This document shows positions 33,001 to 39,000 of a stretch of DNA of 64,000 bases, one piece after another (the first letter of the stretch is position 1; each line of letters opens with the position of its first letter). Location: IMG/VR virus record IMGVR_UViG_2703718861_000013. The stretch is one strand, 5' to 3'. Position numbers: made by a program. The DNA is from a virus (lineage: Duplodnaviria > Heunggongvirae > Uroviricota > Caudoviricetes).

Positions 33001-36000
33001 GTAGAGGCATAAACTGGCAGTGGGCTTATCACTTCATCTTTTTCCAGTTCCCAGGTACGGGCAATTTCCGCCAGCTTGCTGGAATAAATTTCAATCTTAC
33101 CGGAAGGTGTTTTAAGTGGATTTGCCTCGGGGTCGTCACGAAATGCTTTGTAGGCGACAAAATGACCATTGGGATCTTTACGCTTATAGATACCCATTTT
33201 TTTCAGTTCGTCGTAAGACGGTAACGCCGGATCTTTGGCAAGCATTTTGGCGTACAGATGTTGTAACCATTGTTCCTGCGTGCGACCTTCAGTGAACTTT
33301 TGATAGACGTCAGGTCCAAGACGTTTCGCGACTTCACTCAGGATCCAGTAAATCGGTTTGCGTTCGAATTTTTCGCTGGTGACAGGCTGGAGGAAAATGA
33401 GATATCCCATGTTACCGGCGTAGTCGTTAGGAATAATATCTTCCTGCTCAACGGTCATCAGGTCTGGCAGCAGAATGTCGGCATATTTTGCCGATGAGGT
33501 CATAAAGTTTTCGATGACCACAATCATTTCGCATTTCGATTCGTCCTGCAGAATTTCATGCGTTTTGTTGATGTCAGAATGCTGATTAACGAGGGTATTT
33601 CCCGCGTAGTTCCAGATGGACTCCATTGTCAGACGGATGGATGGACTTGAAGTAGTTGACTCAATGCTACTTAAGGTCCTGATATGACTGACATTAACCA
33701 TGATAATACTGTATATCCATCCAGTTCTTTCTCTGGGTCTCCCTATCTGTATCAGCAAGTCTGCACCTCAAGTCCTGACACAAGGCTGACACAAATCAAT
33801 CTACTCAGCGTAGCTAAGCCTCAGTTAGTCCGTAGAGCCAATGGTCGATATACTATCCGCTTCAGACTCAAGGGACAGACCATCCCGTTTCTTTCAGTAT
33901 CGACCCGAAGCACAGACAGGAGAGTAGCCACAATGCGTCAGAGAGAGCTTGCAGCCACAGCTAAGTCCTTCATGTTGGATAGGCCTGATGTCTCGCTACA
34001 GGAGCTTACGGACCACCTCCGGTCTATGGCTGAGCAGTTCCTGACAGACGCCAGTGATGACTACTGGAATGGACTTGAGGTCGCTACTCTGGTGGACGAG
34101 AAGTCCAACCTGAAGGAGCTAGCCGCTACGCAAGCCTTGAGTCTGGACCAGCAGAAGGGCATAAGGTTAGCGCTTGAAGTCCTGACCGCAGCACAGCAGA
34201 GGGTAGACACTGGTGATGCCTCTGGTCTGATTAAGCTGATTGATGATAATAACCATACTGATTACTCAACTATAGGCGACTCTACGTCAATTCTGAAGAA
34301 TGAGCAGGGGGATAGACCAGCAGTTTTCACACAGGAGCGTCAGCCATCTGTGGTTTTTTCAAGCCTAGTGTCCTCGCTGCTGGCTGAGAAGGTCCAGACC
34401 CTGAAGTCCTCCAGCTACAAGGACCTGTCGTCCTCACTGAATACCGTCTCTCGGTTCTTACCTGAAGACATGGACCTGATGTCCCGCTCTGAGTGGCTGG
34501 CTGTCAGGGACTCCATGCTGGCTGCTGAGGTGAGACCATCGACAATCAACAAGCTGCTGACTAAGGCGAAGATGTGTCTTGATTATGGCCTGATGAATGG
34601 GCAACTTGAGGGCCGCAACCCTATTGAACGGATGAAGCTGACCAAGGATATCGACTCCAAGCGCAGAGCGTTCACAGACGAGGAGCTGGAGAGACTTCTG
34701 GTCCGTGTTGAGTCTGAGTATCAGTTCACACGACACACGGCTCACACGACCTCTGAGGCCCGTAGATGGGCGTCTCTGGTGTCTGTGGTCACTGGCGCGA
34801 GGTCTGCTGAAGTCTGCCACCTGACTAAACGTGACATTGTCACCTTAGACAACGGTTTAACCTGCATCGACATCAATGAAGATGGGGACGGTAAGTCTGT
34901 GAAGAACAAACATTCAGTCCGACTTGTACCGCTGACCGATGGGGCCTGTGGGTTCGACCTGAAGTCCTTCCTTGAATGGGTAGACACGCAGCCTGACGAC
35001 GGCGGTCCTCTCTTCGGGATGACTCCGAGCGCCTACTCTAGCTGGTTTAACTCTAGGGTCCTGACTGAGGCACTGGGAGACGCTGAGAACGTTTCTCTCC
35101 ATAGTCTGAGGCATTGGCTGGCGACCCGAATGAAAGAGCGTGGAGTCAATCTGGTGGACGCTCAGGGCATCTTAGGCCATAGCAGTCAGTCAATTACGTA
35201 TGACCTGTACGGGAAAGGACACGCTGTTGGTAGGCTGGCTGAGGTGCTGAAGACAGCTTTACTTTAAGTAGGAAGACCCAAGGTGGAGACCATATACGGC
35301 TTGATGGTTGAGACCTTGGGTCACTGAAGTCTGACTGAAGTTAGGGAGGGTGATAATAATCATAATCCCTCCTGACTATAGGCCCACTGGTTCGCCTTCG
35401 GCTGTCAGACTCTAAGTCTGTATGTGGTCTTATTTAAACTGGTTCCCTAACTCCAGTACTCCAAATTCCTATGGTCTCCTCTTGACATTCCTGTTTAACT
35501 GTGAGTCGCCTCTGGTCTCTCTTTATATATACTTCCTTAATTCCTGAGGCGTCTTTAGTCCTTGACATCCAGTCCAGCCTGTGAGTCACATCCTGTCGCG
35601 CTACTGTATGCATCACCAGTGATGGACTTGATTATCACTATAGGGGAACCAACTAATTCAACTACAGGAGATACTCTATGGCACGACCAATCGCAACTCA
35701 CGACAACACGTTCACCAAAGCCTACTTGCAGCAGCACTGCGGGGACCTGCTGTCATTCGATGGTCAGGGCGACCTGAGTGGTTGGCTGGATGATGTCCTT
35801 ACTGGTGCTGGTCGCCTGAACGAATCAATGGCAAGCAATACCAAGCCTGTCAGCCCATACTTGATTCTGACCCAACTACTAACGCACGACACATTAACTG
35901 TAAGCGCTGTACAGGAGTCCCTGAGCCGTAAGCGTGTTGCCTTGGGTGAACCTATGGTTTCAACTCGCTACGCTCGCTACGTCTATGCTACCGTCGTCAG

Positions 36001-39000
36001 CGCCAGTAAATCCGTCCAGTACCACGCCAGTAAAGCTGGTTCATGATTACGGACCCTAAACTATCACTATAGGGAGACCAGCCTCCGCCTCTGAGTCTGA
36101 TGCGTCAGAACATGCGAGCATCTGGTCAACCGACATTAAGTATCTCTCCTAAGTAATCAAGGCATGTGACCGCCTCTGTCAGACCTCGTGTATCGACCTC
36201 CAGCTCGTTAGCGTTCTCGTGTCTTCATTATGATTTGGGTCTATCACCGCTCACCATCTGGAAGTCCTTACAGCTCGTCCTGACATGCGGTCTCACCTTT
36301 ATATGGCTGGAAGAGACCTCCTCTGTCAGACGCTATCTAACCAACCCAGAAAACGGGTTTGTTAAAAAGATTAACATGGGTCTCCACCTTCATGAGGACC
36401 GCTCCGGAAATTTCCGGACCGTGAACGGGTGGCTCTATCACAGGTCGCGAAAATGGAAACCTGCTTAACGTCCCCAAAACTGAGCAGTCACCATTCTTAA
36501 CGGGTCCAAATTTGGGCGCGTTGGCGAGAAGTCTAACCAACCCAGAAAACGGGTTTGTTAAAAAAGTTAACATGGTCTTCACACGACCTCATTACCTCAA
36601 GTCTTTCTGTATGTCTCCTGTTGCCTGTGAGTCTCCCTATCGTTGGGGGCTTGAGTAGGCTTTCAGGGTGTGACTTCAGGAGGCATAACAAAAGGAGTAC
36701 AACGATATGTCAACTCAACCCTTAATGAAGCATGAAGTAGTTCTTCCTGTCATCGTTGACGGCTATCACTGGGCCTGTAATCAGGACCGTATGTGGAACC
36801 TGAACGAGCTACATAAAGAGCTTGAGCTTCCATCTGCTAAGGAGCCGGGTCAGTGGCGTTCTAGCGTCAGGACGCTTCTTGACCAAGATGCAAATCTGCA
36901 TGTTGCTCATGGTGGTTCGACTCCGGGGACATGGGCTACTGAAGAGGCGGCTATTGCCTATGCGATGTGGGTCTCACCTGATTTCTACCTTAAGGTCATC
37001 CGTGCTTTCATCGCTTTACGTAACGACAAAGTGTCGGAAGCTAAGGCGCTGGCGCAGGACTCCAAGGAACTTAAGGGTCTCAAGCCTATAGCCCGTAACT
37101 GGCTGGAAAAGCTGGATAACCCGAAGCAGGGCCACACCCTGACAGAGTGTCTTAAGAATCTCGACTTCAGGTTAGGTACAAAGCTGGTATCAGCCAAGGC
37201 TCTTAATGCCGTATTGAAGTCAGGGCGTATAGCTAATCCCTTCTATAGTCGCAAGCTGGACGGTCGAGGACAGCCTGTATTTGACATCTCGTCAGGTGGC
37301 TGGATGACCAGCTTCAATCCTAAGGGTCTGGAGAACGGCTATTACCGTCTTCAGGATAACCACTATAACGGTCAGGAGGGGCTTAAGGTCCTCACCAAGG
37401 GTTACGAGTGGCTTAAGTCCAACAAGGTCGAGCTGGTTCGTCTGTGCGCTAAGGGAGGACTCTAAGATGATTGACCCGCGCACACCTGAGGGCCGCATGA
37501 CTCTCCGTTACCGTGGCTACCGGACTGAAGTCCTCCTCAGAGAGCTTGGTCTAGACCCGGAAGATGAGACCCGCCAGCACCAATCCCGAGACGAGCTGAT
37601 AGCGCAACTGGTCGCTATGAAACTGTCTGCCTAATTTTAAAACCTTTTGAGATGACCGATGCGGGGAGACCCGTAGGCGCTACTGCGTCTGCGATACCGA
37701 TAGTCTCAACTCTCAAGAGGAGAATTACCTATGATGTTCAACAACAACAACTGGAAGCTGTCAGTCACCGACATCAACCTTTATGAAAACACTGTGAGTC
37801 TGGACGGTCAATCCTATCCGTTGTCGCTCGCTATCAAGACCCTGATTCCGGGCTACCTGTCAGGACTGCCGTCTACCAGCCGTGAGTCTATGGAGTTACT
37901 GGAAGCTCTGGCTGAAGCTGGTGTAGCTATTGGCAACTTCTTCAGTAATGACCTGATGACCGCCTATGGTCGCCGCCAGCAGAACAAGCGAGCTGAGGCT
38001 GAGCGTATCGCTAAAGAGCAGCGCATTCAGGCCGAGCGCATGCGTGAAGAGAACATGACTGATGCAGAGTGGCAGAAAGAGCTACAGCGCCGCGAACAGG
38101 TCAAAGCTGAACGCCGGACCTATGGTGAGAACCTCCGCAGTGCTACCCATTCCGCTGGTCGCTCCCGTGCCGCTATTGTCGCTGACCTTGAGTCAGGCGG
38201 TAACTGGCTGGACAGCTTATAAGACACACAGTCCCTGACCCGATGTTAGGGACTCCTCAGTTTTGAGGACTCACAGTATTTAAACTAATTTAGGAGATTG
38301 ATTATTATGACGATTAAAGACGCTTTCCAGTTTGGCATTGAGCCAGTACGCATCACCGATACCGACAACATTCAGGTCAATGAAGGTCTGCCGACTAACG
38401 CTGACCCGCAGGTCTACGCCCTCCAGTTAGCTAAGACGGTTAAGGCTATGCTGAACGGTGTACTTAAGGACGCTCAAGAGAACATCCCGTTCCCTGTAGA
38501 AGTCCTGCCGACCCGTAACAGCTTACCGACCCCAATCATTGCCCACACTCTGACTGACCGCTCTGTGGTCGTTCCTGTCCGTGGTGGCAAGCGACCTGAA
38601 GTCGTGACCGTTCCGTCTGGACAAGAAATCGTGGTCGAACCAATCGAGCAGGCTATTCTCATCTCTGAGCAGACCAAGCTCTGGGACGCCAAGTCATCCA
38701 CCGGATTCACTCAGGGCACACTTCAGCAGGACGCTATGAACATCTGTGAGAATGTGGTCCGTACCATCAACGCTCGCATGGTCGACGTTCTGGAATCCTC
38801 TAAGCTGCTGAAGACCGTAGAGCTTCCTGTCCTGACTGGTAGCCTGACCGCTAAGGCAGACGCTATCATGGACGCTCTGTATGAGAACACAGAGTCTTCT
38901 TTCGGTTCTGAGGTGTCTGACTACGGTATTATCGCTCATGAGAGCCAACTGAAAGCACTGTCCCGTCTGGCTGCTAAGCAAGGCTTCTCCGGTGAAGACG

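Follow-up and report, generated by a model that had tools for sequence, protein, structure and literature searches.

A capsid-encoding integrative island of enterobacteria with K1F-type phage promoters, a candidate satellite of virulent T7-group phages

Two K1F-type promoters on an integrative island

We analysed a 64,000-nucleotide stretch of DNA (the window) from the IMG/VR virus record IMGVR_UViG_2703718861_000013, in which an initial annotation had recognised two T7-group RNA polymerase (RNAP) promoters unaccompanied by a gene for a cognate polymerase. Both promoters lie on a 6.56-kb island, bounded by an 11-bp direct repeat (AGTTCCAGATG), for which a role as a satellite of T7-group phages is weighed below. 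Promoter A (ACTTGATTATCACTATAGGGGAA, 35626-35648) and promoter B (CCTAAACTATCACTATAGGGAGA, 36055-36077) read exactly as first quoted, are both on the + strand, 429 bp apart, and have in common TATCACTATAGGG plus ACC at +6 to +8. A pattern search of all 64 kb returned exact matches of TCACTATAGG at these two sites only, in agreement with the earlier impression that the motif is confined to them. The shared 13-mer had no additional match in the window at up to 2 mismatches, and the chance expectation for an exact 13-mer is ~0.002 in 128 kb (both strands). The absence of a polymerase gene also stands, no open reading frame (ORF) of at least 450 aa in the window being a single-subunit RNA polymerase.

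The initial annotation had postulated a T7-group phage with promoters reading ~(A/T)TATCACTATAGGGAGACC, and a compilation of phage promoters established that such phages exist: they belong to Kayfunavirus (K1F, EcoDS1, CR44b and others). Firstly, a BLAST comparison of promoter B with 50,697 phage records showed it to be identical at 25/25 nt in K1F, EcoDS1, CR44b and many other Kayfunavirus genomes, at ~8 sites per genome. Secondly, the 11 annotated EcoDS1 promoters yield the consensus (A/C)CTAAACTATCACTATAGG(G/A), and promoter B agrees with EcoDS1 phi10 (ACTAAACTATCACTATAGGGAGAcca) at 22/23 positions and at 3 further downstream bases, the sole mismatch being the first base. Promoter A is akin to EcoDS1 phiOR (ACTTAACTATCACTATAGGGAAG), from which it is changed at -13 and -11, and its sequence is unchanged in L001, L005, L018 and L023 (L-numbered loci are the island loci used for comparison with the window). 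Thirdly, both sites contain TCACTATAGGG and have the core of the 23-bp T7-group element, with CACTATAG from -7 to +1 and G at +1 to +2 (+3); TCACTATAGGG, or a variant differing by 1-2 nt, is present in 11/11 annotated EcoDS1 promoters. The specificity region (-12 to -8) is that of a known phage lineage in B and partly so in A, where ATTAT departs at -11, as does the base at -13. Swapping positions -12 to -7 yields orthogonal T7, T3, K1F and N4 promoter/polymerase pairs in experiments (PMC3458549). Judged by their sequence, A and B are very likely promoters of functional type for the single-subunit enzyme of K1F-like phages (Kayfunavirus, T7 group), and a K1F-type RNAP would with high probability transcribe the island; A may either be a K1F-type promoter of lesser strength or be adapted to another relative.

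The retained island ORFs of at least 50 aa are all on the + strand and, with the signals among them, succeed one another as follows.

33608-33618, + strand: attL core AGTTCCAGATG, left boundary, inside a split ynfE/F-type molybdopterin reductase gene
33684-35267, + strand: tyrosine integrase (type 1), 527 aa (Pfam Phage_integrase 1.8e-13; PHROG 1 integrase 3e-42)
33737-33754, + strand: concatemer-junction-like (class II pause/termination-type) motif GTCTCCCTATCTGTATCA, in the integrase gene
35364-35386, + strand: weak candidate for a third, divergent phage-type promoter, AATCCCTCCTGACTATAGGCCCA, kept in all type-1 islands
35626-35648, + strand: promoter A, K1F-group variant, ATTAT at -12 to -8, +1 at 35643
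35678-36046, + strand: ORF122 (phrog_23123; PHROG match 1.1e-8), only in some type-1 islands
36055-36077, + strand: promoter B, consensus Kayfunavirus promoter, ACTAT at -12 to -8, +1 at 36072
36072-36706, + strand: conserved non-coding leader from promoter B, 635 nt, with a 44-nt direct repeat and a 3' block of ~125 nt
36707-37465, + strand: KilA-N domain protein (Pfam KilA-N 1.3e-9)
37467-37634, + strand: ORF55, small conserved protein, found by tblastn in nearly all islands
37731-38222, + strand: ORF163, DUF6971-family coiled-coil protein (homologues annotated DUF6971), candidate scaffolding protein
38298-39293, + strand: ORF331, HK97-fold major capsid protein (MCP); probable true start ATG 38307
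39299-39538, + strand: ORF79, homologue of T7-group gp7.3, a tail/adsorption-associated virion protein (phrog_1320 1.8e-11; tblastx match)
39535-39693, + strand: ORF52, kept in a subset of islands
39701-39732, + strand: hairpin plus U-tract terminator of class I type, which both host and phage RNAP can use
39777-39932, + strand: ORF51, small hydrophobic protein, from the ORF list and island comparison
40171-40181, + strand: attR core, right boundary, the same 11-mer as attL

The island interrupts a host gene: the flanking ORFs 32592-33758 and 40124-41581, both on the - strand, are two halves of a DMSO (dimethyl sulfoxide)/selenate-reductase A subunit. In the homologous locus L001 the integrase gene is annotated as a site-specific integrase. 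As had been described, the gene following promoter A is well placed for expression from it, its ATG (35678) standing 35 nt downstream of the +1 and being preceded by the Shine-Dalgarno sequence AGGAG, and the terminator at 39701-39732 is real, with a 10-bp stem, a 3-nt loop and then TTTGTTTTGT (fold z = -4.2). The suggestion that promoter B drives a KilA-N/scaffold/capsid-like operon holds as well, given the HK97 capsid fold of ORF331. This assignment comes from a structure model built from a 34-sequence alignment and is made by fold alone; by sequence, ORF331 showed no relation to EcoDS1 gp10A (hhalign), to any Pfam family or to PDB sequences. A first model from 13 close homologues was unusable (predicted local distance difference test score, pLDDT, of 44) and was replaced. 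ORF163 always lies directly upstream of the MCP gene across islands and has no similarity to the phage scaffold gp9; it may be a scaffold. ORF79 is 39% identical to EcoDS1 gp7.3 over its full length (E 4e-14). The KilA-N gene occupies a variable regulator slot, which in relatives holds Rha, Bro-N or AP2/HNH proteins.

Pfam and PHROGs scans, together with tblastx against EcoDS1, found no replication, portal, terminase, tail or polymerase gene on the island, and Pfam, PHROGs and NCBIfam scans of all nine ORFs found neither a replication module of its own (primase/helicase, or Rep plus ori) nor repressor-type control. There was no excess of sigma-70-like promoters on the island and no notable host-type promoter for the main operon. 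PADLOC recognised no known defence family, only a weak match of the KilA-N domain to the candidate PDC-S22.

Three smaller features of the island may be mentioned. The 12-mer GACTATAGGCCC, within the candidate third promoter at 35364-35386, is also found 3' of phi13 in EcoDS1 and Ro103C3lw, and the GACTATAG core of that site is the core of promoters in the distant island L026, so that the site could represent a third promoter with a different specificity. Units of CTGACACAA(G/A) are repeated at 33775-33797 and 40085-40115, near both island ends, as is TTGACTCAATGC; these are probably arm-type binding sites of the integrase. Finally, a strong 10-bp hairpin (AGTCCCTGACCCGATGTTAGGGACT, 38230-38254) between the scaffold-like and capsid genes could serve as an RNA processing or attenuation site.

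Relatives of the island and the diversity of their promoters

Beyond what the initial annotation had described, we found that the element is mobile, integrative and present in many genomes, that its relatives carry tandem promoters of different specificities, and that it has a concatemer-junction pause motif, a gp7.3 homologue and the base composition of T7-group phages. The capsid module is present in 310/5,426 complete E. coli genomes, with no more than 2 copies in a genome and none on plasmids. Of the same 5,426 genomes, 279 have the K1F-type promoter sequence, at 1-2 unannotated chromosomal sites each; since these 279 genomes mirror the 310 with the capsid module, the promoter is rare in the host and tracks the island, which disposes of the possibility, raised at the outset, that the motif is simply common in host DNA. 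Overall, islands are present in ~5% of E. coli, with relatives in Shigella, Leclercia, Buttiauxella, Citrobacter, Enterobacter and Rouxiella. The same cargo is also found with another type of integrase (type 2, 30% identical), then located at tRNA-Gly next to ETT2 (E. coli type III secretion system 2), including in O26 enterohaemorrhagic E. coli (EHEC). Capsid homologues of 23-41% identity occur at other insertion sites, in islands with the same layout (integrase, regulator, DUF6971, MCP). The compact gene order, 5-6.6 kb long, recurs at no fewer than four insertion sites overall.

All these relatives have phage-type promoters at the same two positions, where the -12 to -8 pentamer differs and the promoter is often doubled, two promoters of different types then standing 26-51 nt apart. 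The types found are ACTAT/GCTAT/ATTAT (K1F), ACCCT/CCCCT, AACCT/CACCT, ACCCA/AACCA, AGGTA, CGACT/TCACT, and ACCCC/ACCCT with GACTATAG. A second Kayfunavirus lineage (Ro103C3lw/GW1) has promoters of the ACCCT type, and one of the island copies is 23/23 identical to Ro103C3lw phiOR. In L028 (assembly GCA_038446135.1; 5650-5730 and 3880-3900) the CGACT promoter ACGACTCACTATAGGGAGA equals the T7 consensus at 19/19 positions, from -12 to +6, and a second promoter variant is of the TCACT type; natural genomes can therefore contain T7 promoters. The ACCCA type resembles Vibrio N4/ICP3 promoters, and AACCT has been described as a natural node that links T7 and T3 types (PMC11880802). No cognate phage was found in the phage collection for CACCT (L008), ACCCA (L021), AGGTA (L024) or ACCCC-GACTATAG (L026), the phage promoters nearest to those types being Ebrios phiOL and Vibrio N4/ICP3. 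A constant position combined with a swapped specificity region is the pattern expected from selection for recognition by different phage polymerases, and it is hard to account for in other ways. Because relatives have tandem promoters of different specificity, one island could exploit several phage lineages.

These comparisons leave little room for chance resemblance or ordinary host promoters, an explanation that draws on the shortness of the motifs only and that we regard as scarcely credible. It has to contend with a 25-nt perfect identity to phage promoters, with positional conservation across genera and specificity swaps that match real phage lineages, and with the absence of the motif from 95% of E. 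coli genomes.

Insertion sequence (IS) elements are found repeatedly in the islands: at 4800-6075 in L008/L011, at 3332-5947 in L022, at 3009-5321 in L024 and in the integrase region of L005. One lies exactly inside promoter B (Shigella flexneri, E. coli ECMA0423), and IS66-family elements stand between the regulator and scaffold genes or between promoter copies; in a Shigella island the integrase is split. Either selection against expression of the islands or plain decay may lie behind these repeated hits. A seeming extra promoter type, 'gtgtgccacttCACTATAGG', in L008/L011 was discarded as an artefact of the IS within promoter B. Only degenerate cores (CACAGTAGG, CACCTTAGG, CACTAGTAGG, CACTGTTAGG, CACTATCGGG) are present at the usual positions in L020 (2750-2800 and 3920-3970), which has an HNH/AP2 gene; EcoDS1 phi4 naturally has CACCTTAGG, and the L020 promoters are either attenuated or decaying.

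Phage-like signals and composition of the island DNA

Pausing of RNAP at the junction signal is required for concatemer processing in T7, where the class II pause/termination signal at the concatemer junction is ATCTGTT. The 18-mer GTCTCCCTATCTGTATCA in the island's integrase gene is the longest word common to both integrase types, proteins that are 30% identical, and it lies in different reading frames in the two; it is kept in 11 fetched island loci and in the window, and L024 has it as well. It contains CTATCTGT, annotated 'concatemeric junction' in EcoDS1, and on the + strand of the window 33743-33752 reads CTATCTGTAT, the same as CTATCTGTAT of EcoDS1 and Ro103C3lw. The Ro103C3lw junction equivalent is GAGTCTCTATCTGTAT, and that of the T7-like phage Ebrios is CCCTATCTGTTA. 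The signal varies together with the promoters: L028, with T7-type promoters (ACGACTCACTATAGGGAGA), has the T7-type signal CCCTATCTGTTA, and islands with K1F promoters have the K1F version. There is no U-run 3' of the motif in the window. We dropped two potential mimics of a phage terminal repeat, the left-end-like motif CTCACAGT at 39940, which is not kept in type-2 islands, and a shared 10-mer, ACCTCAAGTC, which is within chance expectation.

The leader from promoter B was examined in an alignment of 9 islands and, for L028, by direct reading (L006, L021, L024, L026 and L028 being among the islands concerned). Its 3' block (~36585-36706, ~125 nt), which ends at the regulator's ribosome-binding site, is better conserved than any other DNA in the island family and is kept even where the MCP is only 28-32% identical. 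One leader helix covaries, with the compensatory changes CTCAAG/CTTGAG, CGTAAG/CTTACG and CGTAAAGTC/GACTTTACG, and RNAalifold predicts a second helix that would sequester the regulator's Shine-Dalgarno sequence (7 compensatory pairs, from only 6 sequences). No Rfam family matched anywhere in the island, leader included; the block might function as an RNA switch, as an RNase III site or as a site on the DNA. Further upstream lies the 44-nt direct repeat (36336-36379 and 36532-36575, 95% identical), with a small hairpin, AACCCAGAAAACGGGTT, and then AT-rich sequence in each copy; the repeat is missing from short-leader islands and present as a single copy in L026.

The composition of the island is that of a phage. 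Its strand-symmetrised tetranucleotide signature correlates with those of two Kayfunavirus genomes at r 0.83-0.85 and with that of a T7-like phage at 0.74, against -0.08 to 0.09 for the chromosome on its flanks and the prophage next to it, and this high match is reached although only the promoters align at the DNA level. T7 primase pentamers occur at 13.5/kb in the island, 9-11/kb in the phages and 3.3-4.1/kb in host DNA (Markov-1 expectation 7.5 +/- 0.9), a fourfold enrichment. In 6.57 kb (33608-40181) there are 0 GATC and 0 CCWGG sites, and CTAG is not avoided; this is the pattern of T7-group phages and the reverse of that of the surrounding E. coli DNA. L021, L026 and L028 are similar in composition, except that GATC is not avoided in L028 (2.0/kb). 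From this signature, primase density and site avoidance it follows that the island DNA evolved under the constraints of T7-group phages.

Elsewhere in the window, positions 1-28000 are prophage-like, with a host-like tetranucleotide signature unrelated to the island; this part encodes, at 5071-7608, a tail-fibre protein that has both collagen repeats and an endosialidase-chaperone domain and, at 16669-25089, a polyvalent protein of 2,806 aa containing LPD and MuF domains. To the right of the island, a lower-GC region contains an 823-aa ORF (48581-51052, - strand) with a C-terminal Rv2179c-like 3'-5' exoribonuclease domain.

Such a composition, together with the gp7.3 homologue and the IS disruption of several copies, would also suit a decayed remnant of a temperate T7-like prophage, in which the promoters, the gp7.3 gene, the capsid gene and the base composition were functionless leftovers, and temperate T7-like phages do exist (LUZ100). 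We nevertheless hold this origin to be improbable: the compact order is found with intact ORFs in ~300 E. coli genomes and several genera, with two unrelated integrases at no fewer than four sites; there are no fragments of RNAP, DNA polymerase, portal, terminase or tail genes, whether in T7 order or otherwise, the tblastx comparison with EcoDS1 giving gp7.3 only; the MCP has no sequence relation to gp10; and the promoter specificities have been diversified and duplicated, not left to decay.

In T7, origins consist of RNAP promoters with AT-rich DNA after them, and the island promoters might accordingly be chiefly replication origins or priming sites, like the tandem phi1.1A/B at the T7 primary origin. 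The tandem promoter pairs of relatives, the long non-coding region after B with its AT-rich 44-nt repeat, the high primase-site density and the lack of a rep gene all speak for such a role. Yet tandem partners differ in the specificity region, pointing to compatibility with several helpers, both promoters have the proper position ahead of genes whose ribosome-binding sites are good, and the operon ends at a terminator; as their main function, an origin role seems to us improbable. It is compatible with the satellite interpretation and not exclusive of it.

A candidate satellite of virulent T7-group phages

The promoter identity, the architecture, the capsid fold, the gp7.3 homology, the junction motif and the composition are, for the island as a whole, most economically explained by a minimal capsid-encoding satellite of virulent T7-group phages, a reading to which we assign a probability of about 0.6. 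In keeping with satellites in general, the island has an integrase and att sites (the 11-bp repeat splitting ynfE/F; tRNA-Gly for the second integrase type) and an incomplete set of virion and packaging genes. We infer from these observations that it is transcribed in vivo, replicated, excised, packaged and transferred.

The cycle that we propose would run as follows. The island would stay silent until a helper RNAP arrives. On infection, a Kayfunavirus would shut off host transcription, and its RNAP would fire at A (ORF122) and at B (leader, KilA-N regulator, ORF55, scaffold-like protein, capsid protein and gp7.3 homologue), transcription from B stopping at the hairpin terminator. The island would be replicated by the RNAP-primed replisome of the helper, the phage promoters serving as T7 origins; we infer this from the absence of replication genes, set against primase-site and promoter densities at phage level. 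Once the island is circular or concatemeric, the junction pause signal would come to lie downstream of the operon and could recruit the helper's packaging machinery. Island DNA might then be packaged in shells made of the island's capsid protein, or else in concatemeric form in the heads of the helper (6 x 6.56 kb = 39.4 kb, about one Kayfunavirus genome), with the portal, terminase, core and tail of the helper, while the gp7.3 homologue would engage helper tail assembly. The island probably also interferes with its helper.

Several observations weigh against this interpretation. An exact search of metagenome and viral contig collections for the predicted attP junction returned nothing, and the IMG/VR matches come from prophages called in isolate genomes and not from virion DNA; capsid-bearing contigs of 6.4-7.8 kb, considered as excised islands, proved to be ordinary chromosomal fragments. 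The integrase lies upstream of both phage promoters, which leaves the trigger of excision after host shut-off unexplained. The island has no portal or terminase, its 6.56 kb do not obviously fit a capsid size, and its capsid protein is not specifically T7-like. Apart from the promoters, no DNA similarity to phage ends could be aligned and no pac or terminal-repeat homology recognised. In type-2 integrases the junction-like motif falls on a conserved LSVS codon string, where its A/T difference is synonymous, so that part of its conservation there could be at the protein level. Lastly, many copies have IS insertions or broken integrases, and some islands are therefore decaying.

Some of these points are shared by another explanation, that of a phage-triggered defence island that is not itself transmissible. 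The promoters would then be an infection sensor, and a decoy capsid protein, the scaffold-like protein, the gp7.3 mimic and the KilA-N/Rha-type regulator would poison virion assembly or bring about cell death (abortive infection), and only its integrase and other vectors would spread the island. Expression wired to a phage RNAP fits this, as do the lack of packaging and replication genes and of any excised or packaged form (attP search, IMG/VR matches), and helper tail or head assembly might suffer from the gp7.3 homologue and a foreign HK97 protein. Interference is expected under either explanation, because known satellites also interfere with their helpers. Against defence stand the missing match to known defence families and the composition: a gene serving the host has no reason for phage-like tetranucleotides, primase-site density, avoidance of GATC and CCWGG, or a junction signal. 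Moreover, the capsid and scaffold pair is kept down to 23-28% identity in the same architecture, which suggests a real shell-building function. We consider a defence island unlikely, though deserving of attention.

If the island is a satellite, it differs from those known. The late genes of P4 are switched on by the transcription machinery of its helper P2, whose structural proteins P4 exploits; P4 answers to Ogr, which works on host RNAP; it brings its own primase/replicase and uses Sid to redirect the capsid of the helper. P4 relies on a helper activator of host RNAP, whereas the island carries promoters of the helper polymerase itself; the island also lacks the own replication and repressor control of phage-inducible chromosomal islands (PICIs), P4-like elements and PICI-like elements (PLEs). 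Chung and Hinkle reportedly observed in 1990 that plasmids with a T7 origin and concatemer junction are packaged as concatemers during T7 infection, an example in principle of T7 replicating and packaging foreign DNA that has its promoter/origin and junction signals; those T7 transducing plasmids were laboratory constructs with authentic T7 ends, whereas the island has a short junction-like motif and no terminal-repeat homology. The island shares with Kayfunavirus its promoters, junction motif and type of hairpin-U terminator, but its copies are chromosomal, with an integrase and without a polymerase, and the islands of relatives combine promoters of two specificities, as no single phage genome examined does.

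Capsid-forming PICIs (cf-PICIs) have a head module of MCP, portal, protease, head-tail connectors and small terminase, and their own regulation and replication. The island resembles them (e.g. EcCI2/EcCIEDL933) in having its own capsid, but cf-PICIs are larger and are helped by temperate phages, whereas the island is wired to the RNAP of virulent T7-group phages and has, of a full head module, an HK97 MCP and one scaffold-like gene only. They are reported to encode every protein needed for capsid production and packaging (bioRxiv 10.1101/2022.09.08.507074). PICMIs (phage-inducible chromosomal minimalist islands) and marine virion-encapsidated integrative mobilizable elements (VEIMEs) are, like the island, ~5-7 kb long with an integrase and reduced gene content. 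PICMI helpers are virulent phages, and PICMIs have no capsid-remodelling genes and are packaged as concatemers in full-size heads (PMC10803314); neither PICMIs nor VEIMEs have a major capsid gene, and both are packaged as concatemers in full-size heads (PMC9618062). Their hosts are marine, and use of helper-polymerase promoters or of a T7-type junction signal is not known for them; the island fits them in size (6.56 kb) but has a major capsid gene. Since the defining features of cf-PICIs, of PICI/P4/PLE elements and of PICMIs are not found in it, the island should not be filed under any of them. It would work as satellites do, yet stands for a family that is new and apparently undescribed. The literature searched, in which coverage was incomplete and an earlier description is possible, held no satellite carrying promoters of a helper's single-subunit RNAP and no satellite of T7-like phages. 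There is about an even chance that no satellites of virulent T7-group (Autographiviridae) phages infecting enterobacteria were recognised before these, and that they copy the whole cis-acting grammar of the helper while bringing their own HK97 shell protein, scaffold and gp7.3 mimic. On this reading the grammar so copied would comprise promoters for one or several orthogonal RNAPs, the junction pause signal, primase-site density and avoidance of Dam/Dcm sites, and the helper RNAP would be at once sensor, transcriptase, replication primer and packaging trigger.

T7-like phages are textbook virulent phages, which silence host transcription and destroy host DNA. If our interpretation is true, the island would be induced directly by the polymerase of the invading phage, without a repressor or host RNAP, and the tandem promoters would reveal the way in which a single element keeps pace with several orthogonal phage polymerases. 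The capsid/DUF6971 pair points to a probable role for DUF6971, of which no mention was found in the literature searched (coverage incomplete). Chromosomal promoters of the T7 family, such as the 19-nt match in L028, bear on the assumed orthogonality of T7-type expression systems. With islands in ~5% of E. coli, including O26 EHEC, and in Shigella, such elements could affect therapy with K1F-type phages and mediate gene transfer by phages held to be 'strictly lytic'.

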